Origin: a virus
Taxonomy: Duplodnaviria; Heunggongvirae; Uroviricota; Caudoviricetes
Strand: one strand, 5' to 3'
DNA length: 10,606 nt
IMG/VR virus record: IMGVR_UViG_2663762810_000005
Span: 1 to 10,606 of that record
In this document: positions 1 through 10,606 of the stretch, piece after piece
Layout: each line of letters starts with the position of its first letter
Position numbering within the stretch: the first letter of the stretch is position 1
The notes under the pieces: model-generated
The model's database searches: none
What the model was told of the DNA's origin: nothing
Seen by the model: only the letters and a program-made list of their open reading frames with translations
Made by a program: the position numbers and the translations under genes

Positions 1-192
1 TCAGGAGCATTTCTGATTAACGCCACCGTTAAGAATCCACCCTTCAACAGCTTCACGAAGGTATGATTTGGGGTGGGTTCTGACTGGCTTCGGAAATCCG
101 TGCCGTTTGGTATAGTTCCAGATTGTCTGACGTGATGAAACACCGAGCTTGTTCATCACTTCTTTCTCAGGAATCAGGCTGGTATCGGTCAT
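1..192 (-). CDS. xis: Excisionase-like small HTH DNA-binding protein (Xis/AlpA-type)
   Basis: 63 aa; ATG at 192 with GGAG 7 nt upstream; stop at 1..3. Basic HTH-like segment (VSSRQTIWNYTKRHGFPKP); position at the far end of the leftward operon is where lambdoid xis lies. Confidence 0.5.
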   Translation of the reverse strand: MTDTSLIPEKEVMNKLGVSSRQTIWNYTKRHGFPKPVRTHPKSYLREAVEGWILNGGVNQKCS

Positions 193-206
193 CTTAATTC
201 TCCAGG

Positions 207-232
207 CAAAAATAAACCGCCATATAGCGGCT
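207..232 (-). terminator. Putative intrinsic terminator (weak hairpin plus T-run on minus strand)
   Basis: Minus-strand agccgctatatggcggtt hairpin (about 6 bp with wobbles) followed by tatttttg. Confidence 0.3.
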
Positions 233-292
233 CTATCAGATATGTACAGGCCTCATCGAGTGTGAGGCGGTGTGATTTCTTTATTTCCACTC

Positions 293-508
293 TTAATGTT
301 TGTCAGTGAATGGTTTCTCCATCTCCATTAATGCCTTATTCATCTCATTTCGTAACTCTATAGCCATCCTGACGGCTTCAACCTGTGCAGGATGTCGGTT
401 AATTGCTGGAGAATATCGTCGGGAGCGAAGGATTGAGAAAACAAAGATAATGCAAGCAACTATCTGAATTGCATTGCATATTATTGAGACAATGTGAATT
501 GCAGCCAT
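293..508 (-). CDS. Hypothetical small protein with N-terminal hydrophobic helix
   Basis: 71 aa ORF with ATG at 508; N-terminal IHIVSIICNAIQIVACIIFVFSIL then basic stretch. Weak SD; it starts immediately after an intrinsic terminator, so expression would need antiterminated read-through. Confidence 0.3.
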   Translation of the reverse strand: MAAIHIVSIICNAIQIVACIIFVFSILRSRRYSPAINRHPAQVEAVRMAIELRNEMNKALMEMEKPFTDKH

Positions 509-518
509 CTACTACCCC

Positions 519-540
519 AAAAAAAACCGCCATCAGGCGG
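519..540 (-). terminator. Intrinsic terminator, minus strand
   Basis: Minus-strand hairpin ccgcc-tgat-ggcgg followed by T8 (A-run 519..526 on + strand). The stop codon of the 533..700 ORF sits in the loop. Confidence 0.5.
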
Positions 541-700
541 CTTGGTGTTCTTTCAGTTCTTCAATTCGAATATTGGTTACGTCTGCATGCGCTATCTGCG
601 CCCATATCATCCAGTGGTCGTAGCAGTCGTTGATGTTCTCCGCTTCGATAACTCTGTTGAATGGCTCTCCATTCCATTCTCCTGTGACTCGGAAGTGCAT
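533..700 (-). CDS. Hypothetical small protein (55 aa), below the ORF-track length cutoff
   Basis: Hand-translated: MHFRVTGEWNGEPFNRVIEAENINDCYDHWMIWAQIAHADVTNIRIEELKEHQAA. ATG at 700 with GGAG 7 nt upstream; ends inside the terminator hairpin. Confidence 0.35.
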   Translation of the reverse strand: MHFRVTGEWNGEPFNRVIEAENINDCYDHWMIWAQIAHADVTNIRIEELKEHQAA

Positions 701-780
701 TTATCATCTCCATAAAACAAAACTCGCCGTAGCGAGTTCAGATAAAAGAAATCCATCAATTGGTTAGGGTTTTTGTAATT

Positions 781-972
781 TTACGAATTATGTTGTTTTT
801 TAGCTTCAGCTTTCCATTCATCAAAGGCAGTGTCTTTGTTCATGGTGCTGATATTGATCTTACGGTCAATATCATATACACGCCACTCACCGTTAGGCCT
901 CTCTTCGCATCTAACTAAGTATGAATTGCCATTAATATCTATGCGTCTGTCTATTTGCATGAACATTTTCAA
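781..972 (-). CDS. Hypothetical small protein (63 aa)
   Basis: ORF in an AT-rich stretch; the track start is a TTG at 972 (AGAGGA 8 nt upstream), with alternative ATGs at 966 and 960. No recognisable family. Confidence 0.4.
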   Translation of the reverse strand: MKMFMQIDRRIDINGNSYLVRCEERPNGEWRVYDIDRKINISTMNKDTAFDEWKAEAKKQHNS

Positions 973-1086
973 TTTTCTAATCCTCTTTAATATGCATTTT
1001 TTTTTGCTATTTCAGTAGTTTACTATTGATGAGGCATTATTATACACACTTCATTAATGCAAGCATCTTTATGCTATGCTACTAAT

Positions 1087-1368
1087 TTAGCAATTGATAT
1101 TCACCTTTATCGCGAATACCGTTACCGGTTTATCGCCGAAGTGCGGATGTGTGATTGTCTTGATTTCATATCCGTCATACGGGACGTCAATTCTGCGGCT
1201 GGAATCGTCGCGCTTCGGATATCCCTTTGTGATAATCAGGCGGTCATACTTACGATTAACGAGGCGTTTATTCCAGTAGTCATTGCACAGGCGATACTCT
1301 TCCGTTTTCTCCCCGCGAATCATGGCGTCGAAGTATTCACCTTTGACGGCAAGTTGCAGGTTAGCCAC
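1087..1368 (-). CDS. Hypothetical phage protein (93 aa); possible ASCH/PUA-like fold, unverified
   Basis: GTG start at 1368 preceded by AAGGAGG at 6 nt; overlaps the stop of the upstream gene. The fold guess rests only on the N-terminal pattern (KGEYFDAMIRGEKTEEYR). Confidence 0.5.
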   Translation of the reverse strand: MANLQLAVKGEYFDAMIRGEKTEEYRLCNDYWNKRLVNRKYDRLIITKGYPKRDDSSRRIDVPYDGYEIKTITHPHFGDKPVTVFAIKVNINC

Positions 1369-1645
1369 GACCTTCCTCCTTTGGCTTGTGAATTTGTATC
1401 GTCATGCCGCTTTGAGTGGTGACTACAATGACAGAACCAGGCTGAAGGCTGTTAAGATTGAATGCTTCGTAAAACGAATCCAAGGCCAGTGCTTTTTTAT
1501 TCTTTCGGTTCCACCAACGCCATCCCCTGCTACAGGCTACACTGACAATCCACTGTCCACTCCTGTAAGCCATATAAAACCAGATGAGCAAAACCTGAAG
1601 GAATGCTATCCAGTCAATAATCGTATATTTCGCGAAGGAGTCCAT
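1361..1645 (-). CDS. Hypothetical small membrane protein (94 aa)
   Basis: ATG at 1645 (the track's GTG at 1648 is one codon upstream) with GGAGGTGA SD; TGATG overlap with the lar-like stop. Hydrophobic helix IIDWIAFLQVLLIWFYMAY. Confidence 0.5.
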   Translation of the reverse strand: MDSFAKYTIIDWIAFLQVLLIWFYMAYRSGQWIVSVACSRGWRWWNRKNKKALALDSFYEAFNLNSLQPGSVIVVTTQSGMTIQIHKPKEEGRG

Positions 1646-1941
1646 CACTTCACCTCCTGCGGAGTAGCCTTTACAAGCACTGGTGTAAATCCATCTTCAT
1701 TAAGGTTATGAATATAGACTTCTGTTCTCCTGCGCTCTTCAACGTTTAATATTGTTTCTGGATCATAAACCCATACTTTCATTCGACTATTCCATGAAGA
1801 AATCGCTTCAGATCTAGTTCGTTTTTCTGGTCCTTGGGCACCACATTTGCATGACACATAGCGCATTTTCCCTCTGATACTGAATGAGTATCCGATGTTA
1901 AGCACAGTGGAACCACAGAATGGGCAGCGATATAGATTCAT
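1645..1941 (-). CDS. lar: Lar-family restriction alleviation protein
   Basis: 98 aa; N-terminal CPFCG, second Cys pair (CKCGAQGP) and EAISSWNSR match the recalled Lar-family pattern. ATGA overlap with the upstream gene stop. Confidence 0.65.
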   Translation of the reverse strand: MNLYRCPFCGSTVLNIGYSFSIRGKMRYVSCKCGAQGPEKRTRSEAISSWNSRMKVWVYDPETILNVEERRRTEVYIHNLNEDGFTPVLVKATPQEVK

Positions 1942-2471
1942 AAATCATCCACCTTAGGCGCAGCTGAGACAGCAACATTCCAGAACTCAGAAAACATATT
2001 GTATGCACCAGATAGATTGGAAGTGGCATACCCTCCAAGCTCACTTCTAATCTGAACGGCTCTCATCATTTCCGGTGTTAACTCCTTCGGCACTATAACC
2101 CAACCATCCGGAGTTACCGGAGAGTTGCCCGATGGCTCGTTCAACTTGCAAGTTTGGCTTACAGGTTCGGCTTCCAGTTCTGCTATGCGCTTTTTTGCTG
2201 CTTCCAGCTCGCCAAGCAGCGCCAAGACGGTAGCCGGATTGGCTGCGGCGATGAATTCAGCATTGGCCTGCTGTTCCATTTGGAAATCTTCATCGAAACC
2301 GCTTTCTGGATGCGCTCCCTCAATTCTGCAAATGGGAATATATCCAGCAACTTCACGATGAATTAGCGCATCATCACCATCAAATCGGTCCTCTCCATAT
2401 TCGAGCGACCACACACCACACGTTGCTTTCTCTGCCTTTTCACGCAGTGCCTGATAGTCAATCTTGCTCAT
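1938..2471 (-). CDS. Ea22-like prophage protein
   Basis: 177 aa; contains ANPATVLALLGELEAAKKRIAELEA, a coiled-coil motif recalled from Ea22-like proteins of enterobacterial prophages. Confidence 0.6.
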   Translation of the reverse strand: MSKIDYQALREKAEKATCGVWSLEYGEDRFDGDDALIHREVAGYIPICRIEGAHPESGFDEDFQMEQQANAEFIAAANPATVLALLGELEAAKKRIAELEAEPVSQTCKLNEPSGNSPVTPDGWVIVPKELTPEMMRAVQIRSELGGYATSNLSGAYNMFSEFWNVAVSAAPKVDDL

Positions 2472-2472
2472 G

Positions 2473-2772
2473 TCACATCACCCTGAATCCATTGCATTTA
2501 CGTAAAAAATCGCAGATATAGCCCTTCATTTTTTCATGCCAATCTCGATCATTCCCATTGCACCAACCATCAGGTGGAGTCCAGTTTTCTATCAGAGCAG
2601 CAATTTTCTTTGCTTTCGCCGGAGTAGCTGTTGCGGTATCGCAGTAATGACGAGTGTCAACAAACTTATCCATACCATCGATATCAAGTACGCAAAACCA
2701 TGTGTGATTCGGCATTTCAACAGATGGTATTTGTTGCCCACGTCGACGTTTATCAATAAGACATACAGTCAC
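2473..2772 (-). CDS. Hypothetical phage protein (about 99 aa)
   Basis: The track ORF 2473..2793 starts at a GTG; a better start is the GTG at 2772 preceded by AAGGAGG at 6 nt, with GTGA overlap to the upstream small ORF. Several Cys/His residues. Confidence 0.5.
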
Positions 2773-2936
2773 TGGTTGCCTCCTTTGCGCCACATCGCAT
2801 TCAGATATTTGTTGTCATTAACAGAACCGAAACTATTTCTCTTAAGCAATTCCTCTCTCGATGGCATTGGCTTTACGCGTTGGCGAATAATCATTTCTGC
2901 CGGAAGAATGCCGGGATTGTATGCAAGTCCTCTCAT
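2769..2936 (-). CDS. Hypothetical small protein (55 aa), translationally coupled
   Basis: Hand-translated: [59 protein letters not shown] overlap with the upstream stop; GGAGAG SD. Confidence 0.35.
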
Positions 2937-3223
2937 GATTTACTCTCCACGAACTGGTCAATAGCCATGCTAAGTGACATACCTAAAGTTTCGATATGTT
3001 GCTGAATATCCTGTAGCGTCTGCGCCTGAGATAACAGGATTTCACGGTTGCATAACTCTTTGACCAGATGCTCAAACTTGCTGTAATAACCGATACGGCT
3101 TAGTGTTTCTTTCCCTGCATTCTCACCTTCTTTGATAATTCCTCTTTCACTAAGAATCAGGTCGTGTTTGGTTCCGGTAATAACGTATTTTCCGAGGTCG
3201 ATGTTTAGCTTCATTGTTTTCAT
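2933..3223 (-). CDS. Hypothetical phage protein (96 aa)
   Basis: Track ORF 2933..3376 trimmed to the ATG at 3223 (GAGGAA SD 6 nt upstream), which lies just after the stop of the 3234..3530 gene. Confidence 0.5.
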
Positions 3224-3233
3224 TGTTAATTCC

Positions 3234-3530
3234 TCAGTCATTACTGATAGCGCCATAGCGTGAGCGGTAATTACGCAGGCGCGGGTCGATATATTCAGGG
3301 AAGTGGGTATATGTGGCTTTGCGGAATGGTCGGATTGATGTCTGGTAAATTCGCTCGCGTTCTTCTTTCTCTGCAAGCCATATACAGTGGCGAAATTCCT
3401 TTTCCTCTTTCGTTTCCTGCGGTAGAGACATTATTCGATCGTAGTTTTTTCTGAATTTATCCAGCACCTCCGATACGGAATTGCCGGAACAGCGGCGCGC
3501 GTCATCCGCACCATACAGAGGCGCTGGCAT
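3234..3530 (-). CDS. Hypothetical phage protein (98 aa)
   Basis: ATG at 3530 with GGAG SD; 13 nt downstream of the ssb stop. Confidence 0.5.
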   Translation of the reverse strand: MPAPLYGADDARRCSGNSVSEVLDKFRKNYDRIMSLPQETKEEKEFRHCIWLAEKEERERIYQTSIRPFRKATYTHFPEYIDPRLRNYRSRYGAISND

Positions 3531-3543
3531 GATTTTCTCCTGA

Positions 3544-4059
3544 TTAAATTGCGTGAATAGCGTGACGAGGGAAGGGGAGAGTTACTGGTGCAAAGGGTAT
3601 ATCGTCGTCAAAATCCATAGGTGGTTCGCTGTGATTCCCTTGCTGCTGAGGTTGCTGTCTTTGTTGCTGACCGTCATTTCGCTGAGGTGAAGACTGTTCA
3701 TTGCCTCCTTGCTTGCCACCAAGCATTTGCATGGTTCCACCAACGCCCACGATGACTTCGGTAGTGAACCGATCCTGTCCGCTTTGATCCTGCCATTTTC
3801 TTGTCCGCAATTTTCCTTCAAGATAAACCTCAGAGCCTTTTCGCAGATATTCGCTGGCAATTTCTGCCAGTTTTCCGCTCATTACCACGCGGTGCCACTC
3901 CGTCTGCTCCTTTTGCTCTCCAGTTTGCTTATCACGCCATTGTTCTGACGTAGCAACTGTAAGGTTTGCAAATGCCGTTCCTGATGGTGAATATCTGATT
4001 TCTGGATCATGCCCAAGGCGACCAATAATGATCACCTTATTTACGCCTCTGCTTGCCAT
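3544..4059 (-). CDS. ssb: Single-stranded DNA-binding protein (SSB) with a 15-aa extension beyond the acidic DDDIPF tip
   Basis: 171 aa; N-terminal [18 protein letters not shown]-fold start, Gly/Gln-rich linker, MDFDDDIPF motif, then [15 protein letters not shown] before the stop. Start abuts the upstream stop (TAAATG). Confidence 0.85.
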
Positions 4060-4767
4060 TTATGCCGCCTGTTTTAGTTCGTTAACTCTGATGTTCATTA
4101 CCTGAACGCATTTAGCCTGCGCATCCTCATTGCCAGCCATTAATTGCCAGTCATGCTGATAACGTTCGATGAGTTTTTTCTTGTCAGTTTCTGTCGACGC
4201 ATAATCGCTGAAGTCTTTCAGGATTTGTTCGCAGTCAACCGATGGAGATTTCTGGTTGGTATTTTCTGGTGATGGTTTGTTATCTGATACTGGCATTGCC
4301 CAGCCCGGCAGCGATGGAGGGAGCCAGTAAAATCCTGTTCCATCCTTCAGTTTTGCCCTGTGCCATCCCTGCTTTTTATCGAGAGATGTTTGTGCGAAAC
4401 CTTCCTCAAGGTTATACAGATACCGACCGATTCCCCACTGAACGGCAGCACGCTTCATTGCACCTGAACGACCACCTTTGACGGCTTCTACCTGCGTGTT
4501 TTCAGCAGCATCCCATTTGGTTACCCATTCGGAATCAATCCTGATTGATATGCCGCATTCAACGCCTCCGTTGTTGGGAATATCGCGGTATTCATTGCGC
4601 CATCCTGCTTTGCCGCAAACATCGTCCAGGCGTTTCATGATTGCCCTGTTCGTGACATAAGCCAGCACCATAGCCCACACCTTGCCATCGCGTGTTTTAC
4701 CGCTTTGCTGTATTCGCCATTCGATATCTTCAGGGCTGAATGGCTCATCGAATTTGTTCAAATCCAT
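4060..4767 (-). CDS. Rad52/Sak-type single-strand annealing protein (phage recombinase)
   Basis: 235 aa; EDIEWR and AAVQWGIGRYLYNLE motifs recalled from Rad52/22-family annealing proteins. Sits directly upstream of ssb, a typical annealing-protein plus SSB module. Confidence 0.65.
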   Translation of the reverse strand: MDLNKFDEPFSPEDIEWRIQQSGKTRDGKVWAMVLAYVTNRAIMKRLDDVCGKAGWRNEYRDIPNNGGVECGISIRIDSEWVTKWDAAENTQVEAVKGGRSGAMKRAAVQWGIGRYLYNLEEGFAQTSLDKKQGWHRAKLKDGTGFYWLPPSLPGWAMPVSDNKPSPENTNQKSPSVDCEQILKDFSDYASTETDKKKLIERYQHDWQLMAGNEDAQAKCVQVMNIRVNELKQAA

Positions 4768-4775
4768 AATTCACC

Positions 4776-4946
4776 TCAGAATGGACACGGCCCAAGGAAA
4801 TAACGCTGATTTAATACTTCGACTCGGGACAAATTAAGGCATACCCGCATTCCTTCGCGGTCGCCATTATGGCGATACCAGAGAGCTTTCTGCGTGTACA
4901 TGCGTCTCTGTAACTTGCTCTCCTTCACTGTGGTTGCAAGTGACAT
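4776..4946 (-). CDS. Hypothetical small basic protein (56 aa); alternative to the 4867..5025 ORF
   Basis: ATG at 4946 with AGGAG and 6-nt spacer; hand translation MSLATTVKESKLQRRMYTQKALWYRHNGDREGMRVCLNLSRVEVLNQRYFLGPCPF. Overlaps the other candidate in a different frame, so at most one is likely real. Confidence 0.3.
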   Translation of the reverse strand: MSLATTVKESKLQRRMYTQKALWYRHNGDREGMRVCLNLSRVEVLNQRYFLGPCPF

Positions 4947-5025
4947 GAATATCTCCTTCGTTACCGATTAATTCTTTCATCTGACGAATGAATTCTTCGT
5001 CTGACCAGTTATCTGTAAAACTCAT
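4867..5025 (-). CDS. Hypothetical small acidic protein (52 aa); alternative to the 4776..4946 ORF
   Basis: ATGA start/stop overlap with kil; hand translation MSFTDNWSDEEFIRQMKELIGNEGDIHVTCNHSEGEQVTETHVHAESSLVSP. Confidence 0.3.
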   Translation of the reverse strand: MSFTDNWSDEEFIRQMKELIGNEGDIHVTCNHSEGEQVTETHVHAESSLVSP

Positions 5026-5174
5026 TTCCTGCGATACCACGGAAGGTTGATAGCTGATTTCATCGCTTTATTTGCTTCAAGCCACATTTTTGAATCACCA
5101 ATAAATCGGGCTATTACTGCTTTGTTTTGTGCCGCACGAAGCATCTGGTGATTAATGGCTATTTCATTGCGCAT
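5022..5174 (-). CDS. kil: Kil-like protein (host cell-division inhibitor)
   Basis: 50 aa, hand-translated: MRNEIAINHQMLRAAQNKAVIARFIGDSKMWLEANKAMKSAINLPWYRRK. Core IARFIGDSKMW resembles the recalled lambda Kil IATFIGDEKMF; lies just after cIII as in lambda. GGAG SD. Confidence 0.5.
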   Translation of the reverse strand: MRNEIAINHQMLRAAQNKAVIARFIGDSKMWLEANKAMKSAINLPWYRRK

Positions 5175-5293
5175 AACGTCTCCAGTTGTTTCTTTGCTGC
5201 TCTGATTAATTGTTTAACTCGGCGTGATAATTCAGATTCGTGCGGGTAGAAAGCGGACATGACGCCGCTACCCGCGAGCTGAAAGTGCATCAT
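5159..5293 (-). CDS. cIII: cIII-like protein (FtsH/HflB inhibitor)
   Basis: 44 aa from the ATG at 5293 (AAGGAG 6 nt upstream), inside track ORF 5159..5398. MMHFQLAGSGVMSAFYPHESELSRRVKQLIRAAKKQLETL parallels the lambda cIII central helix (PSESLLERITRKLRDGWKRLIDIL). Confidence 0.55.
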   Translation of the reverse strand: MMHFQLAGSGVMSAFYPHESELSRRVKQLIRAAKKQLETLCAMK

Positions 5294-5357
5294 GGGTAAC
5301 TCCTTATATTTGATTGCATAACGAAAACGCCTCGAGTGAAGCGTTATTGGTATGCAT

Positions 5358-5383
5358 ATAAAAAAGCCCTCACACCGGAGGGC
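5358..5383 (-). terminator. Intrinsic terminator, minus strand (ends the AT-rich cassette)
   Basis: Perfect 6-bp stem gccctc/gagggc with a 6-nt loop, followed on the minus strand by TTTTTT (A-run 5360..5365 on +). Confidence 0.5.
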
Positions 5384-5487
5384 AAAGAAGATTTCCAATA
5401 ATCAGAACAAGTCGGCTCCTGTTTAGTTACGAGCGACATTGCTCCGTGTATTCACTCGTTGGAATGAATACACAGTGCTTATTCGTA

Positions 5488-5958
5488 CTAATAAAATACC
5501 CAATTTTCTGTTTCTTGGTTGTGTCCAAAGTTATATTCAATATCTGGTGTTGATGTATCAATATTTTTCATCCCATCAACAAGAGTTGATACAACAGCCA
5601 AATCTTGTTTTATTCTCATTAAATGGTATTTCTTCCGGCGCAATAAACTTTCAATAGCAAGTTTCTTCGTTGGGAATGCAAAAGATCTTTCTGCATTTTT
5701 TGCTACTTTCTTAATTGCATATCTATTTCTCCTTTGTTTCCATTCCTGTAACCACTGATTTGGTGCTGGTTTAAAATTAACAATCCAATGCGCAGGAACC
5801 AACCATGCATAATGCTCTGTCTGATGAAAAGCTATATATTGAAGTGCGAATATTTTTATCCCATCTTCTTCAACTGTCGCCTGGAATCTCCAGAAAACAG
5901 GCATTCCATCATGTTCAGTTTCTGATTCAGGAAAAGGTACGCTCCATGATTTTGTCAT
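5488..5958 (-). CDS. Hypothetical protein (156 aa) in a low-GC island; candidate moron, exclusion or defence function
   Basis: Long ORF in a clearly AT-rich segment; GAGGTGAG SD before the ATG; Trp/Lys-rich with no recognisable motif. Occupies the N-to-cIII interval where lambda carries ral/sieB-type genes. Confidence 0.55.
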   Translation of the reverse strand: MTKSWSVPFPESETEHDGMPVFWRFQATVEEDGIKIFALQYIAFHQTEHYAWLVPAHWIVNFKPAPNQWLQEWKQRRNRYAIKKVAKNAERSFAFPTKKLAIESLLRRKKYHLMRIKQDLAVVSTLVDGMKNIDTSTPDIEYNFGHNQETENWVFY

Positions 5959-6012
5959 ATCTCACCTCAAATAAGTGGTTTGCTGCGAAAGTAAATACGC
6001 TTAAGTTACCTG

Positions 6013-6150
6013 TTATTTATCCCACCAAGTTCCGTATCTATCTATCCAGTTACACCAATCATCGACACTCCATTTTGTTGTGTCGCATTTTGGCAATTGG
6101 CATGAATATCTACCTTCTTTGTAAAGTCGGCGTTTGACTTTCTTGAGCAT
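6013..6150 (-). CDS. Hypothetical small Cys/Trp-rich protein (45 aa)
   Basis: Hand-translated: MLKKVKRRLYKEGRYSCQLPKCDTTKWSVDDWCNWIDRYGTWWDK. GAGGTGG SD immediately after the N stop; AT-rich. Confidence 0.35.
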   Translation of the reverse strand: MLKKVKRRLYKEGRYSCQLPKCDTTKWSVDDWCNWIDRYGTWWDK

Positions 6151-6157
6151 GACCACC

Positions 6158-6490
6158 TCAATCGTAATAAGCCGGAATTGATTTTCCGCGTTGCTTCTGG
6201 CGGCCTGAACAAGTCACACCCATTTCACTGCGTGGCTTGCGGTACCATGTGCGCTGATTCTTGCGCTCAATACGTTGCAGGTTGCTTTCAATCTGTTCGT
6301 GGTATTCAGCCAGCACCGTAAGGTCTATCGGATTCAGTGCGCTTTCTACTCGTGATTTCGGTTTGCGATTCAGCGAGAGAATAGGGCGGTTAACTGGTTT
6401 AGCGCTTACCCCAACCAACAGGGGATTTGCTGCTTTCCATTGAGCCTGTTTCTCTGCGCGACGTTCGCGGCGGCGTGTTTGTGCATCCAT
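6158..6490 (-). CDS. N: Antitermination protein N (lambda-type)
   Basis: From the ATG at 6490 the product begins MDAQTRRRERRAEKQAQWKAANPLLVGVSAKPVNRPILSLNRKPKSRVESALNPIDLTVLAEY, matching the recalled lambda N arginine-rich N-terminus. The track ORF extends 30 codons further upstream to an alternative start. Confidence 0.9.
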   Translation of the reverse strand: MDAQTRRRERRAEKQAQWKAANPLLVGVSAKPVNRPILSLNRKPKSRVESALNPIDLTVLAEYHEQIESNLQRIERKNQRTWYRKPRSEMGVTCSGRQKQRGKSIPAYYD

Positions 6491-6600
6491 CTGGATTCTC
6501 CTGTCAGTTAGCTTTGAGTAACGCGCCGTGATGCTTATCTCCACGGTTGCTGTCTTGCAGCTGCATTTCGCGCTACTCAAAGCTTTCTGCTTTGAATGCT

Positions 6601-6631
6601 GCCCTTCTTCAGGGCTTAATTTTTAAGAGCG
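6601..6631 (-). promoter_or_regulatory. nutL site (boxA plus boxB)
   Basis: Minus strand reads CGCTCTTAA-AAATTAA-GCCCTGAAGAAGGGC: boxA at 6623..6631, boxB hairpin at 6601..6615. Matches recalled lambda nutL and sits between pL and N. Confidence 0.85.
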
Positions 6632-6671
6632 TCACCTTCATGGTGGTTAGTGCGTCCTGCTGATGGCCTAA

Positions 6672-6700
6672 AATATACCTGCAGGTAAAACAGCTGTCTA
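6672..6700 (-). promoter_or_regulatory. pL promoter (leftward)
   Basis: Minus strand -35 TAGACA (6695..6700), 17-bp spacer, -10 TATATT (6672..6677). Operator palindromes overlap the spacer and -35 flank. Confidence 0.5.
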
Positions 6701-6712
6701 TACCTGTAGGTA
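6676..6712. promoter_or_regulatory. OL operators: two 12-bp palindromes
   Basis: TACCTGCAGGTA (6676..6687) and TACCTGTAGGTA (6701..6712), centres 25 bp apart. Same motif family as the three sites flanking the other side of cI. Confidence 0.55.
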
Positions 6713-6774
6713 AATAAAATTGATGTAAGAGTTTACCTGCTTGAATTTTCAGGTAATTAATTTTTTGGATTGAT

Positions 6775-6797
6775 ATAAAAAAGCCCGCTTTGCGGGC
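6775..6797 (-). terminator. Intrinsic terminator, minus strand, ending the cI transcript
   Basis: Perfect stem gcccgc/gcgggc with a 3-nt loop, followed on the minus strand by TTTTTT. Confidence 0.6.
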
Positions 6798-6809
6798 TGA
6801 AAGGAGATG

Positions 6810-7106
6810 TCAGAAGCTATTTGGATTGCTTGGCCATTGCGGCAATTTTGATTCTACTGGGGTGTGTTTGGGTTTGAGTCCGTTTAAGTAGTCAAGGCGC
6901 TCAATGGCGCATTTATACATAGCAATCTGCTCTGATGACATGTCGTCGTATGACATGCCTTTGAACTTTTTAATTATCGATTCTGCCTCATGTATAAGAT
7001 GCTTCTTCCTCATGAGTTCAGCTGTATGCTTAGAGCTTACAGGAGATAACTTTGCCCATATGAAGCAGATGATTACAACAGCGACTACTATGCCGGGTAT
7101 AAACAT
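6810..7106 (-). CDS. Hypothetical small membrane protein immediately downstream of cI (98 aa from ATG 7106; track start is a TTG at 7124)
   Basis: N-terminal TM helix (IPGIVVAVVIICFIWAKL) then about 70 aa of soluble, charged sequence. Lies between the cI stop (7121) and the terminator at 6775..6797, so it would be co-transcribed with cI. Moderately AT-rich. Confidence 0.5.
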   Translation of the reverse strand: MFIPGIVVAVVIICFIWAKLSPVSSKHTAELMRKKHLIHEAESIIKKFKGMSYDDMSSEQIAMYKCAIERLDYLNGLKPKHTPVESKLPQWPSNPNSF

Positions 7107-7120
7107 TTGCTGCTTTATCC

Positions 7121-7807
7121 TCAAACTTTTGGCAGATCGTCCTGGTCTACGTACCTGGTGTGTTTCACAATAGCTGAAACAAAATGCATTTTATCAACTT
7201 CTTCAACAGGAAGAGTGATTGGGCGGTGATCACTGTTTATGCTACTAAACTGATAATCACCGTCTCTTGTTTTGTTCATGATCTTTATCATGTTGTGACC
7301 GTCTTTGGTCCTTACAAAGACTTCATCACCTGGATGTACTGGCGTATTTGGTTCAATAACAACATATTCTCCTGACTGAATCCTTGGCCACATGCTGTCA
7401 CCCTTAACCTTCAGACCGTAAGCATCTTTATCGCCGCTGTAGATGCTTAACCAACCGGATCTGAATTCAATCATATCCACTGAGCCATCAACTCCCAAAA
7501 CGGCTTCACCAATTACCGGAACAAAACCCGCACGAACGTTACCCGCAAACTCAAGATGGTCCGTAGCTCCAGCTTTACCATCTGCAAGCATGTCCATCCA
7601 TCCGCGTGGGAGATTAAAAGATTTTTCAATTAGCTCCATCATATCGTCAGCAATGCGTTTTTTTCCGCTTTTTCCTTCCGGATACAGCATTCTGGAAACG
7701 TATGATGGTTCCCTTTCTATTCGACGAGCCAACTCTGAGGCCTTTCCATTACAGAATCGGTCTCTTATCTCTATCAGCCTTAGTCGTCTTTGTTCGTATT
7801 TATCCAT
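7121..7807 (-). CDS. cI: CI-type prophage repressor (N-terminal HTH plus C-terminal S24 LexA-like autopeptidase domain)
   Basis: 228 aa; HTH-like ASELARRIEREPSYVSRML; C-terminal GDSMWP with a downstream Lys, typical of S24 self-cleaving repressors. Flanked by operator palindromes on both sides. Confidence 0.85.
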   Translation of the reverse strand: MDKYEQRRLRLIEIRDRFCNGKASELARRIEREPSYVSRMLYPEGKSGKKRIADDMMELIEKSFNLPRGWMDMLADGKAGATDHLEFAGNVRAGFVPVIGEAVLGVDGSVDMIEFRSGWLSIYSGDKDAYGLKVKGDSMWPRIQSGEYVVIEPNTPVHPGDEVFVRTKDGHNMIKIMNKTRDGDYQFSSINSDHRPITLPVEEVDKMHFVSAIVKHTRYVDQDDLPKV

Positions 7808-7813
7808 GATTTA

Positions 7814-7842
7814 ATTCTATCTTTGATTACCTGCCGGTAAAT
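7814..7842 (-). promoter_or_regulatory. pRM-like promoter giving a near-leaderless cI mRNA
   Basis: Minus strand -10 TAGAAT (7814..7819) ends 6 nt before the cI ATG; -35 is poor (ATTTAC), consistent with an activator-dependent pRM. Confidence 0.4.
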
Positions 7843-7879
7843 AACCTATGGGTATTGATTTGCTTTTTACCTACAGGTA
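7828..7879. promoter_or_regulatory. OR operators: three 12-bp sites
   Basis: TACCTGCCGGTA (7828..7839), AACCTATGGGTA (7843..7854), TACCTACAGGTA (7868..7879); centre spacings 15 and 25 bp. Arrangement relative to pRM and pR mirrors lambda OR3/OR2/OR1. Confidence 0.55.
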
Positions 7880-7883
7880 AACT
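7855..7883 (+). promoter_or_regulatory. pR promoter (rightward)
   Basis: -35 TTGATT (7855..7860), 17-bp spacer containing an operator, -10 TAAACT (7878..7883); cro ATG follows at 7916 with an AAGGAG SD. Confidence 0.5.
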
Positions 7884-7915
7884 CATCTTATTCAACAACG
7901 GGAAGGAGATAGCAA

Positions 7916-8146
7916 ATGGAAGAACTCCGCTTGTATCTGAACTCCCTTTCACTGGAAGAGCAGAGAGAATTTGCCACCAAGTGCGGAACTTCTATCGGCT
8001 ATTTGAGGAAAGCACTTAGCCGTAATCATGAATTGGGCGCAGCACTTTGTGTTCTGATTGAGAAGTTCAGCAATGGTGAAGTGACTCGCAAAGACCTTCA
8101 TCCGGTTGATTGGGAAAGCATCTGGCCTGAATTAATGGCCGCTTAA
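7916..8146 (+). CDS. cro: Cro-like HTH regulator
   Basis: 76 aa first gene of the pR operon; HTH-like REFATKCGTSIGYLRKAL; strong AAGGAG SD. Called by position and HTH only. Confidence 0.65.
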   Translation: MEELRLYLNSLSLEEQREFATKCGTSIGYLRKALSRNHELGAALCVLIEKFSNGEVTRKDLHPVDWESIWPELMAA

Positions 8147-8153
8147 GTTATTA

Positions 8154-8188
8154 ACGCTCTTACACATCCCCGCCCTGAAAAAGGGCAT
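8154..8188 (+). promoter_or_regulatory. nutR site (boxA plus boxB)
   Basis: CGCTCTTAC (8154..8162), 11 nt, then GCCCTGAAAAAGGGC (8174..8188); near-identical to recalled lambda nutR. Confidence 0.85.
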
Positions 8189-8244
8189 TACCAGAAACAA
8201 ATCTCTATGGTTTTGCGTTTCTTTGCGAAGCCAACTCTATCTAA

Positions 8245-8288
8245 TAATTAAGGAAATTATCTATGGGTACTATTGCAACTAAAAGCAA
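8245..8288 (-). promoter_or_regulatory. pRE-like CII-dependent promoter (leftward) overlapping the cII 5' end
   Basis: GCAA-N6-GCAA on the + strand at 8275..8288 (TTGC-N6-TTGC on minus) within cII codons 4 to 9, the same geometry as lambda pRE; -10-like CATAGATAA downstream on the minus strand. Confidence 0.45.
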
Positions 8289-8544
8289 GAAAGCGGCTCG
8301 CATCGAGTCAGCCTTGCTGAACAAACTGGCACTGATGGGGCAGAAGACATTCGCTCGAGCAATGGGGGTTCCTGAATATCAGGTAAGCCGATGGAAGAAT
8401 GGTTTCTTCTCGCAGGTAAGCATGATGCTGGCTGTTCTGGAATACGGAATCGAAGACGATGAAATGGCTGAGCTGACTAAGCGGCTTGCCAATTACCTGA
8501 CAAAAGAAAAAGCCCCGAAGAACGGCGAATTCTTCGAGGCCTGA
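8263..8544 (+). CDS. cII: CII transcriptional activator
   Basis: 93 aa; ARIESALLNKLALMG...VSRWKNGFFSQVSMMLAVLEYGIEDDEMAEL closely parallels recalled lambda CII (ALRIESALLNKIAMLG...ISRWKRDWIPKFSMLLAVLEWGVVDDDMARL). Confidence 0.85.
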   Translation: MGTIATKSKKAARIESALLNKLALMGQKTFARAMGVPEYQVSRWKNGFFSQVSMMLAVLEYGIEDDEMAELTKRLANYLTKEKAPKNGEFFEA

Positions 8545-8578
8545 TGTAGAAAGACTGGATCAATCCACAGGAGTCATT

Positions 8579-8740
8579 ATGACAAAACGTCGTAAGAAAT
8601 ACCAGGAAAAAGAAGAGATTCGACACCCTGATTCACCTGAGGGATTAGTGGTAGCCGCAGCAAATAACAGGGCGTTCGCAGAGCGCCTTGTTGGTGTTTA
8701 CAGACTAGCCAAAGCAGGAGTGAAGCATGGGCGTCGTTAA
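8579..8740 (+). CDS. Hypothetical small basic protein (53 aa)
   Basis: ATG at 8579 with AGGAG 7 nt upstream; hand translation MTKRRKKYQEKEEIRHPDSPEGLVVAAANNRAFAERLVGVYRLAKAGVKHGRR; 3' end overlaps the start of the replication initiator. Confidence 0.35.
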   Translation: MTKRRKKYQEKEEIRHPDSPEGLVVAAANNRAFAERLVGVYRLAKAGVKHGRR

Positions 8741-9617
8741 GTTAGCTGATTACAGGCATAACCCTGTACAACATCAGGAGGCATCCAGTATGGGGTATGT
8801 CTCTATACACCGCCAGTTTATGGACAGCAGGCTCTATAAGGACTCTCAGGCAGTACATCTTTGGCTTCACTTAATCCTCAAGGCTAATCACGAATCTACT
8901 GTCGTCAATACGGATATCGGTCCGATAACTGTTGATCGCGGTCAGATGATAACTGGACGCCCGTCGCTGGTCAGAGAAACATTCATCCCAGACAACAAAG
9001 TTCGGAGCTTATTACGGACTTTTGAGTCGAAAGGTATGCTTAATATTTGCTCGATGGGGAAGAAATTTAGCCTGTTTACAATCGTTAAATATGACGATTT
9101 TCAGGCAAAAAATTGTCCAACGGTTGTCCAACGGTTGTCCAACGCAAACACCAGTAATGGCGCGGCTCTCAGCGGAGATTGTCCAACGGTTGTCCAACGG
9201 TTGTCCATAAACAATAATATAAATAATATCTCTAATACTGACGTATTAGAGAGTGCCACAGCAGACAAAAAGTCTGACAAGAAAAAACCTTCCGTTAGCT
9301 GTCAGGATGTTGTCGATGCTTACCACGAAATCCTTCCTGAAGCGCCAAGAATCCGCGCACTGAATGACAAGCGTAAAAACCAGATCCGAACGTTCTGGCG
9401 CAAAGCCGGAGTGATAACCCGACAGCTTGACGGGCATGGTTTCACGATGCAGGACTGGAGAAATTATTTGAGCTACGTAGGCGAAAATTGCCGATGGATG
9501 TTCGAAGAGCGCCCAAACCATCAGCGCGGAACCGTCTGGCACAAAAAGGGATTTGATTTCCTGCTTAACGATAATACCTACCTGAAAGTTCGTGAGGGTG
9601 AACACGATGACCGATAA
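8727..9617 (+). CDS. Replication initiator (lambda O / P22 gene 18 analogue) with the origin inside its coding sequence
   Basis: 296 aa; AGGAG SD; position after cII; contains two arrays of 11-bp iterons encoding repeated CPTVVQRLS, then an AT-rich segment, as in lambda ori within O. Confidence 0.7.
   Translation: MGVVKLADYRHNPVQHQEASSMGYVSIHRQFMDSRLYKDSQAVHLWLHLILKANHESTVVNTDIGPITVDRGQMITGRPSLVRETFIPDNKVRSLLRTFESKGMLNICSMGKKFSLFTIVKYDDFQAKNCPTVVQRLSNANTSNGAALSGDCPTVVQRLSINNNINNISNTDVLESATADKKSDKKKPSVSCQDVVDAYHEILPEAPRIRALNDKRKNQIRTFWRKAGVITRQLDGHGFTMQDWRNYLSYVGENCRWMFEERPNHQRGTVWHKKGFDFLLNDNTYLKVREGEHDDR
9113..9209 (+). repeat. Origin iterons: 2 x 3 tandem copies of TTGTCCAACGG (9113..9144 and 9179..9209), separated by 34 bp
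   Basis: Direct tandem 11-bp repeats read in the sequence; followed by an AT-rich stretch and a 10-bp inverted repeat tctctaatac/gtattagaga (9229..9252). Confidence 0.8.
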
Positions 9618-10170
9618 TTTTTATGCGCCGCCCCATAGCATCGAGGCAGAGCAGGCGGTGATTGGTGGATTGCTTCTGGATGATGACAGCAGTGAGCGCG
9701 TCCAGAAGGTTCTGGCGATGCTGAAGCCTGACTCATTTTACAGCCGACCACACAAAATCCTTTTCGAAGAAATAACCAGAATGCACCGGGAGCAAAAGCC
9801 AGTAGATGGCCTGACGCTTTTCGATGAACTGGAGCGTAAATCGTTAACGGCGTCTGTTGGCGGTTTTGCTTATATCGCTGAGATCGCAAAGAACACGCCA
9901 AGCGCAGCAAACATCGTTGCCTATGCAATGCAGGTTCGTGAAACCGCAATGGAACGCTACGCCATCAACCGCATGACTGAAGCGACGGAATTGCTCTATT
10001 CCCGCAACGGAATGACTGCAACGCAGAAGTACGAAGCTATTCAGGCGATTTTCACGCAACTGACAGACCATGCAAAAACCGGATCGCGTCGCGGCCTTCG
10101 CTCATTTGGTGAGGTCATGGAAGACTGGGTTACCAGTCTTCATCGCTGTCACGGTTCAGGGTGTAGTTAA
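9607..10170 (+). pseudogene. DnaB-family replicative helicase gene (P22 gene 12-like), truncated: N-terminal domain only
   Basis: From ATG 9607 (GAGGGTG SD, overlapping the initiator stop): PPHSIEAEQAVIGGLLLD...SVGGFAYIAEIAKNTPSAANIVAYAMQVRE closely matches the recalled E. coli DnaB N-terminal domain. ORF stops after about 188 aa with no Walker-type ATPase domain; homology is lost near 10127. Confidence 0.7.
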
Positions 10171-10606
10171 AGGCGCCGGCCTGAAGCGGGCGACTCAGGG
10201 CAAATGCACCTTCTTCTGTGGTGGCACCATTCTGTGCATCCACAACCCGGATACCCTGTCCGGAGGTTGCCACCCCGAGGTTACTGTTTCCGACATTTGT
10301 AAACGCAAGCCAGGTTTTGCCGGTTGCCTGACCACCATTAATCACCAGCTGGTCAGAGGCATTACTGCCATCAAGGCTAACACGCATATTGATGGTGCCA
10401 CCCTGACCGGTGAGGTTACTGGTTGTCAGTTTATGGAACGTTACCGGGGCGTTGCCTTTTACAACAGCACGGCTCAGTACGGCATCCGGTGTTGTCTGAT
10501 TGTCAAAGTAAATCTCCCCTGCGTTAACAATATCGCCGGTACTGACCACATCACCATTCAGTACCATGCTGGCGCCTTTACTGAGCTGTGTTCTGCCACT
10601 CAGACT
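10130..10606 (-). pseudogene. Autotransporter-type (AIDA-I/Ag43-like) passenger-domain fragment, 3'-truncated; open to the window edge
   Basis: Minus-strand frame is open from 10606 to a stop at 10130; Gly/Thr/Asn-rich beta-helix-like repeats (LVINGGQATGKTWLAFTNVGNS, GIRVVDAQNGATTEEGAFALSRPLQAGAFNYTL) recalled from autotransporter passenger/autochaperone regions; no beta-barrel domain follows. Confidence 0.5.

Follow-up and report, generated by a model that had tools for sequence, protein, structure and literature searches.

The cI operon and ORF X

The window analysed here comprises 10,606 nucleotides (nt; positions 1 to 10,606 of the IMG/VR virus record IMGVR_UViG_2663762810_000005) and is part of an Escherichia coli lambdoid prophage. 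In region 6700-7200 it matches the immunity region of coliphage mEp043 with 98.8% identity. The subject of this report is a small open reading frame (ORF) between the genes for the cI repressor and the antiterminator N, here called ORF X, whose product is a candidate anti-phage exclusion factor. Sequence reading and scans for promoters, terminators and operators gave the following order of features on the minus strand, listed here in the direction of transcription:

7814..7841, minus strand: pRM-like promoter, TTTACC-16 nt-TAGAAT, from a consensus scan and the sequence; putative function
7121..7807, minus strand: cI repressor, 228 amino acids (aa), with a C-terminal S24 (LexA-like) autopeptidase domain (Pfam Peptidase_S24, E 1.4e-17; phrog_4)
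7118..7122, minus strand: predicted Shine-Dalgarno sequence GAGGA of X, overlapping the cI stop codon, 11 nt upstream of the ATG; from sequence reading
6810..7106, minus strand: ORF X, 98 aa, 11.2 kDa, isoelectric point 9.2; member of phrog_10450
6775..6798, minus strand: predicted intrinsic terminator of the cI-X operon (tIMM-like), with a 7-bp GC-rich stem, a 3-nt loop and a T-run
6672..6756, minus strand: OL/pL region, with a pL-like promoter TAGACA-17 nt-TATATT (6700-6672) and operators at 6676-6687 and 6701-6712
6158..6490, minus strand: antiterminator N, 110 aa, with a lambda-N-like arginine-rich motif (Pfam N36, E 2.5e-26); far border of the cI-N cargo slot

To judge from this order, the layout of the window is that of lambda, and X takes the position of rexA-rexB-tIMM. 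A previous sequence-only reading of this DNA had placed an ORF of about 98 aa directly after cI, before a terminator and at the rexAB position. The arrangement agrees with it in each respect: cI (7807-7121) is followed by X (7106-6810), the hairpin (6798-6782), the operators and pL (6756-6672), and N (6490-6158). The gap between the cI stop codon (TGA, 7123-7121) and the ATG of X is 14 nt, and the hairpin with its T-run at 6798-6775 was confirmed. Only one ORF fits between cI and this terminator, so that the two-gene composition of the Rex system is absent here.

The frame of X spans 6810..7106 from the ATG (98 aa) or 6810..7124 from a TTG that overlaps the cI stop codon (104 aa), and the earlier reading had left the choice between these starts open. 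The alignment of homologues decides for the former. All of them have M/V-(F/Y/W)-I-(P/S) as their first residues, aligned with ATG 7106, the start codon is kept as ATG or GTG, and the six codons between the two candidate starts are not conserved; TTG 7124 was therefore ruled out. In 26 of the 40 E. coli copies listed, the alignment ends one base short of the first base of the start codon, which reads GTG in both such copies inspected (PA45B and mEp043). Most E. coli copies thus appear to differ at the first base of the start codon. In the relative L009, a GAGGA sequence is located 8 nt before a GTG start.

The pRM-like promoter has a -10 hexamer that ends 7 nt upstream of the cI ATG, and a leaderless cI mRNA, as in lambda, is therefore probable. 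The -35 hexamer overlaps the operator at 7828-7839. Promoter-like sites in the region are not above chance in the consensus scan (four found versus 3.0 expected). The scan for terminators revealed no terminator-like site between the pRM-like promoter and X. Downstream of X, the predicted terminator consists of AGCCCGC-AAA-GCGGGCT (6798-6782) followed by TTTTTTAT, with a folding free energy of -12.6 kcal/mol and a z-score of -3.4. The diverged relative L007 has a hairpin of different sequence with a T-run at the same place after its X homologue, and in L009 the sole terminator-like candidate is an operator-like inverted repeat. Read from the sequence only, X would be the promoter-distal cistron of the cI maintenance operon, transcribed from pRM.

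With regard to the features of a moron, a terminator is present and no promoter-like site occurs in the 14-nt gap; the sole consensus match inside cI (7498-7470, 9/12) is at chance level. X looks more like an operon extension than an autonomous moron. The GC profile runs through X without a compositional break, and there is accordingly no evidence of a recent foreign origin of this gene. An antisense ORF (6904-7173, plus strand) was set aside, since family-wide conservation and the ratio of non-synonymous to synonymous substitution rates (dN/dS) back the frame of X.

The X family and its genomic slots

Contrary to the earlier statement that no family could be recognised, X belongs to phrog_10450, which is of unknown function in PHROG. 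The match is full-length (residues 7-104 of the TTG-started ORF versus positions 1-98 of the 98-position profile; E 9.8e-55), and the homologue from the P22-like phage N7 matches the same profile (E 3.2e-52). Nothing else in the PHROG scan of X was better than E 0.058. Scans of X against Pfam and NCBIfam gave no family (NCBIfam noise only, E ~0.09), and a Pfam scan of 14 family members returned only scattered matches with E >= 0.01. A word-indexed search of 5.8 billion proteins yielded near-identical copies of X only. An exhaustive HMMER scan of 1.84 billion representatives retrieved relatives that are similar in length and 31-43% identical (E 8e-18 to 1e-5). In a profile search the family grew to 22 clusters, all of them called 'hypothetical', whose source-named members are all from Escherichia or Salmonella; a profile search of PDB sequences gave nothing better than E 0.98. 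Eleven residues are invariant in the 14-member alignment: H27, K34, I38, E40, A41, M56, C66, A67, L71, W91, and P92.

This cI is present in 52 of 5,426 complete E. coli genomes, and X was found in all 52, in one copy each and with an intact reading frame in all copies read. The dN/dS values of X against its two most diverged close copies are 0.10 and 0.17, similar to that of cI (0.09). Eight of its 14 polymorphic sites are at third codon positions (binomial P = 0.058), which is weak evidence alone but consistent with coding. RefSeq, annotated with the Prokaryotic Genome Annotation Pipeline (PGAP), includes X in two of the 40 E. coli genomes listed and leaves it unannotated in 38; the GenBank records of mEp043 do call it. 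Because of this gap, surveys of defence systems would miss cI-linked X in most of the genomes listed.

The omission by PGAP and the lack of a Pfam or NCBIfam family are what one would expect of a spurious or decaying ORF without function. Such an origin can practically be discounted: the frame is intact in the copies read, dN/dS is 0.10-0.17, the start is kept as ATG or GTG, and relatives of 31-43% identity preserve length, architecture and the 11 invariant residues in two unrelated genomic contexts. The conservation data effectively refute it and identify X as a genuine conserved protein-coding gene of the lambdoid prophage with mEp043-type immunity.

Two metagenomic relatives (P0006 and P0007), both 42% identical to X, are located directly behind cI genes whose products are 83-85% identical to that of the window, the value depending on the alignment method. 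The operators of the window recur at these loci, L007 and L009 have the same pL hexamers as the window, and N follows in one locus. DNA similarity to L009 is interrupted from the cI stop codon to OL. The three lineages compare as follows, synonymous sites being saturated in all cross-lineage comparisons:

cro: amino-acid identity 88-92%, dN 0.07-0.10
cI: amino-acid identity 83-87%, dN 0.09-0.10
X: amino-acid identity 42-48%, dN 0.48-0.62

Since X is retained behind cI across lineages with saturated dS, it must have been held in this slot for a long time while diverging 5-6 times faster than its neighbours. Divergence of this order would be anticipated if X were in conflict with phage targets.

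The second branch of the family belongs to P22-like podoviruses and comprises phage N7, phage HZ41, three E. coli prophages, and two metagenomic contigs. A copy of the N7 type occurs in 57 of the 5,426 complete E. coli genomes. Genomic context was examined in six loci; HZ41 was left out of this count because its record carries no annotation. In all six, the X homologue faces ejection gene 16 in convergent orientation and directly adjoins it. Four loci (N7, L018, L019, and L020) have it as the final gene running in the same direction as a repressor of the Mnt/Arc or helix-turn-helix type (immI). In L012, the Arc-family genes are separated from the X homologue by genes on the reverse strand, and in L008 no such repressor gene was seen. 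The position abutting gene 16 is where P22 has sieA, in the slot between genes 16 and 9. This location holds for the N7-type homologues; X of the window follows cI instead. Of the flanking proteins that were scanned in N7, L008, and L012, none gave a PHROG match to SieA. In N7 (L013 4098-4938, ORF16 and ORF15) and L018 (3580-4420), two genes (phrog_4293 and phrog_24865) in the same orientation are located between mnt and the X homologue; these may be additional cargo expressed in the lysogen.

The interval between cI and N is a described mosaic hotspot, which holds rexAB in lambda and bstA in BTP1 (PMC8585504). The cI protein of the window is identical to that of mEp043 and 49-50% identical to those of 933W and H-19B (tblastn). 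The earlier reading had proposed to check whether the cI-adjacent cargo varies among related prophages. It does, and known or candidate defence genes occur in the slot. The cI relatives with 47-72% identity in species-representative genomes are without X, and have in its place a HipA_2 kinase with DUF3037 (PADLOC candidate PDC-M66A/B), a RhuM-family protein (PDC-S05), an IrrE/M78 protein (RmrA-like) with DUF4411, or HigB/HigA; elsewhere, the slot holds unknown small proteins or is empty. In 933W (cI 49% identical) it is occupied by L0084-L0083-stk, and stk matches PD-T4-6 kinases. L0084 and L0083 were considered as homologues of X and rejected by homology tests. The slot behind cI could be mined as a defence hotspot.

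The cargo loci recorded were L027/L029 (3769-5399), L030/L033 (~3500-5250), L037 (3641-4717), L032 (3345-4168), and L017 (2691-4594), from prophages of Proteus, Providencia, Pectobacterium, and Morganella and from phage 933W. Two small ORFs (112 aa and 99-105 aa) are located behind the cI relatives of Photorhabdus (L024 3672-4302; L026 3664-4297). The second of these has a hydrophobic segment (Kyte-Doolittle 1.92), and neither had a Pfam or PADLOC match.

As far as the sequences retrieved here indicate, the X family occurs only in two slots, both known for lysogen-expressed exclusion or defence cargo. This distribution bears on a role of X as a regulator of the prophage's own lysis-lysogeny decision, in which it would modulate cII/cIII turnover, RecA-mediated induction, or the timing of lytic growth from the membrane. 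The strict linkage to one cI type, kept over a long divergence, would fit such a role, and by analogy with lambda X would also be transcribed from the establishment promoter at lysogenisation. We regard it as very unlikely, however, because homologues are found next to unrelated repressors in the immI/sieA slot of P22-like phages, where regulation is organised in a wholly different way, the other cI relatives (47-72% identical) lack X, and a divergence 5-6 times faster than that of cI and cro would be unexpected in a core regulator.

Predicted protein and proposed function

An N-terminal transmembrane helix and a charged tail had been noticed before, and both are borne out. X has a single hydrophobic segment, residues 2-20 (Kyte-Doolittle mean 2.5; next best 19-residue window 0.05), and the remaining 78 residues include 12 K/R and 9 D/E. 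None of the eight family members examined has K/R before the hydrophobic segment, and all have two to six K/R in the next 15 residues. By the positive-inside rule, this distribution places the N-terminus outside and the conserved C-terminal part in the cytoplasm. The 'soluble tail' of X is thus most likely cytoplasmic rather than periplasmic.

An AlphaFold2 model built with the family alignment reached a predicted local distance difference test (pLDDT) score of 79.6, versus 74 for the single sequence. In this model, a helix of residues 5-47 is continuous with the membrane segment and basic from 21 to 47; after a loop, a second helix (58-76) packs back, followed by an extended C-terminal tail that bears the conserved WP motif (W91, P92). 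Foldseek searches with the models gave no fold match (best E 2.5 in PDB and 0.76 in BFVD). The features of exclusion lipoproteins such as Cor, Llp, and Ltp are absent: X has no basic n-region of a signal peptide and no lipobox. The only cysteine in the hydrophobic segment is C14 (V-I-I-C), which lacks G/A/S at -1 and is unconserved among the homologues.

From the genomic position and the predicted architecture, we consider that X could be a lysogen-expressed inner-membrane exclusion factor against phages, in a broad sense, with a probability of about 0.5. The idea that it has exclusion or abortive-infection activity stems from position and architecture taken together. RNA polymerase starting at pRM would read through cI into X and stop at the hairpin (6798-6782), and ribosomes would start at the ATG/GTG at 7106 by means of the GAGGA sequence overlapping the cI stop codon. 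The product would be an 11-kDa single-pass protein of the inner membrane, the extreme N-terminus of which crosses to the periplasm, while the basic juxtamembrane helix, the helical hairpin and the C-terminal WP motif would face the cytoplasm. Placed in the inner membrane of the lysogen, X would guard it against other phages. It would most likely do so by disturbing the membrane step of genome delivery, like P22 SieA, HK97 gp15, and T4 Imm. Its probable partner would be the membrane-inserting ejection or tape-measure proteins of the incoming phage, or a host inner-membrane protein that these use, and no partner gene of its own would be required.

Interference with entry is favoured because of the replacement of sieA in its slot, the adjacency to ejection genes, the lack of a partner gene, and the minimal architecture. 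Even so, that X blocks entry of the phage genome specifically is a tentative proposal only. A wider version of it is likewise doubtful: X would found a family of one-gene, single-pass inner-membrane anti-phage proteins that has moved between the lambdoid cI operon and the immI/sieA slots of P22-like phages, replacing SieA functionally, and that blocks genome translocation from the cytoplasmic face by binding ejection or tape-measure proteins, the 5-6-fold faster divergence reflecting an arms race.

SieA of P22 is an inner-membrane blocker of DNA injection, present in only 22 of 66 P22-like phages; phages escape it through mutations in gp16 and gp20, and, like the conserved part of X, its best-conserved motif is predicted to be cytoplasmic (PMC10883804). 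Both proteins are prophage-encoded and inner-membrane, and act alone (presumably so in the case of X), and the X homologues of P22-like phages occupy the exact SieA slot in immI, convergent with and abutting gene 16. The differences are considerable. SieA (phrog_7745) is 164 aa long with several membrane helices, and its family (types A-C) of ~160-200 aa is multi-pass, whereas X (phrog_10450) has 98 aa and one helix. The SieA motif FxRYPxEAxxFNK is absent from all 14 aligned members of the X family, and X of the window is located in the cI operon of a lambda-type siphovirus rather than in immI. The block of injection is demonstrated for SieA and putative for X. X therefore differs from SieA in every testable trait of that family except the slot, which is shared only by the relatives of the P22 branch.

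The RexA/RexB system of lambda resembles X in position and operon logic (cI, cargo, tIMM, OL/pL, N), in expression from pRM, which is predicted for X, and in having a membrane component. Rex, however, is a two-gene sensor/effector system of abortive infection in which RexB has four membrane helices, while X is one small protein with a single predicted membrane pass. The PHROG, Pfam and PADLOC scans did not link X to the Rex proteins, and X is not Rex-like in sequence or architecture. BstA of BTP1 and Stk of 933W are also encoded directly downstream of lambdoid cI. They are large cytoplasmic abortive-infection proteins (BstA is a DNA-binding protein with a cognate aba element, Stk a protein kinase) and are unrelated to X in sequence and architecture; thus, X shares only its position with RexAB, BstA, and Stk. 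For BstA, sharing of the repressor promoter was presumed by the authors (PMC8585504).

The mechanism that we consider most likely for X is that of HK97 gp15 and T4 Imm, small phage- or prophage-encoded, membrane-anchored proteins that act alone at the inner membrane and block DNA entry. The PHROG scan of X shows no homology to them, and the predicted orientation of X differs in placing its conserved domain in the cytoplasm. In addition, the gp15 gene has its own promoter and forms a moron within the tail gene cluster, whereas X extends the cI operon.

Given that rexAB of lambda, bstA of BTP1, and stk of 933W, which share the slot of X, are all abortive-infection systems, X could also act after entry. 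It would stay inert in the membrane until a product of the infecting phage triggers its oligomerisation, followed by depolarisation or permeabilisation of the inner membrane and death of the cell before progeny is formed, a Rex-like outcome from one gene. In the model, the single membrane helix and the long continuous helix up to residue 47 could bundle into a pore, and the conserved cytoplasmic domain could be the sensor. On the other hand, a lone 19-residue hydrophobic helix without a polar face is a poor pore former, X resembles neither RexB nor holins nor any abortive-infection model of PADLOC, and its second context beside ejection genes points to entry and not to post-entry suicide. We consider this explanation improbable.

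Lysogenic conversion has also to be weighed. X would then act on an inner-membrane machine of the host, such as a transporter, an enzyme of O-antigen or envelope biogenesis, or a protease such as FtsH, and a change in phage adsorption would be a mere side effect, or the benefit would be a gain in host fitness unrelated to phages. Precedents are the inhibitors of O-antigen polymerase, small inner-membrane phage peptides (D3 Iap, epsilon15), and Tip of JBD26, a cytoplasmic inhibitor of pilus assembly. A small membrane-anchored protein with a predicted cytoplasmic domain of binding type, linked to the repressor and kept in all 52 prophages with this type of immunity, would suit this role. The family is, however, confined to phage and prophage slots that otherwise hold anti-phage genes, its very fast divergence would be easier to explain by a variable phage target than by a conserved enzyme of the host, and nothing points to any particular host partner. 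Conversion of the host is thus unlikely, although somewhat less so than a suicide response.

Several points weigh against X as an exclusion factor. Its transcription from pRM, its translation and its membrane localisation are all predictions, and its topology is predicted from the positive-inside rule only. In the searches made, X resembled none of the known exclusion or defence proteins in sequence or fold: the PADLOC-DB 2.0 scan returned no family at E up to 10, and alignment of the family to P22 SieA with hhalign, which led us to reject X as a SieA homologue, gave a probability of 0.4%. Literature searches on mEp043, the protein accessions, and phrog_10450 revealed no functional work and no mention of the X gene. 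The positional argument is statistical, since hotspot slots also hold toxin-antitoxin pairs and genes of unknown role. The faster divergence of X could reflect relaxed constraint rather than conflict, and positive selection is not separable because dS is saturated. Finally, mEp043 is a lambda-like siphovirus with its own exclusion protein, Cor; the cI-linked copies therefore imply no specific tie to ejection proteins of the P22 type, and X is not tied to one type of virion.

Lysogen cargo behind the repressor and small membrane exclusion proteins are already well known; it is the X family itself that is uncharacterised. X is therefore a well-supported and cheaply testable candidate rather than a surprising one. 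Should X exclude phages, the few proteins known to act at the membrane step of phage genome delivery would be joined by a very small system made up of a single gene; this step is still poorly understood, in the case of SieA as well. The family offers a natural allelic series for the mapping of specificity, with 42-48% identity behind nearly identical repressors and with two genomic contexts. If X is not an exclusion factor, it is still a conserved gene overlooked by standard annotation, and the cI-N slot is confirmed as a cargo hotspot.

Other features of the window

The plus strand, divergent from cI, carries cro (7916-8146), cII (8263-8544), an O-like replication gene, and a gene for a DnaB-like helicase. 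The remaining listed features of the immunity region are:

7828..7879, strand not assigned: OR operators, 12-bp palindromes TACCGGCAGGTA (7828-7839) and TACCTACAGGTA (7868-7879), with a degenerate copy at ~7843-7854
7916..8146, plus strand: cro-like repressor, divergent from cI (phrog_35, E 7.5e-16; mEp043 annotation)

The operator palindrome TACCTGCAGGTA is over-represented, with 12 matches (up to three mismatches allowed) versus 3.0 expected; none of 200 shuffled sequences reached 12. The OL region also contains a more widely spaced inverted repeat of operator half-sites (6733-6756). A scan of the whole window against Rfam revealed no RNA family.

The O-like replication gene (8727-9617, plus strand) includes an 11-bp direct repeat, TTGTCCAACGG, in two triplets (9112-9144 and 9178-9210) with a spacing of 11 bp. 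These repeats very likely represent iterons at the origin of replication of the prophage. The DnaB-like helicase ORF (9592-10170) encodes the N-terminal domain only and abuts, at ~10132, a minus-strand autotransporter fragment (AC_1/Pertactin domains) that runs off the window. The segment 9300-10606 is covered to at most 64% by any of the 5,426 complete E. coli genomes, and the helicase/autotransporter junction is consequently absent from all of them. This junction represents either a deletion or rearrangement that truncated the prophage or an assembly chimera.

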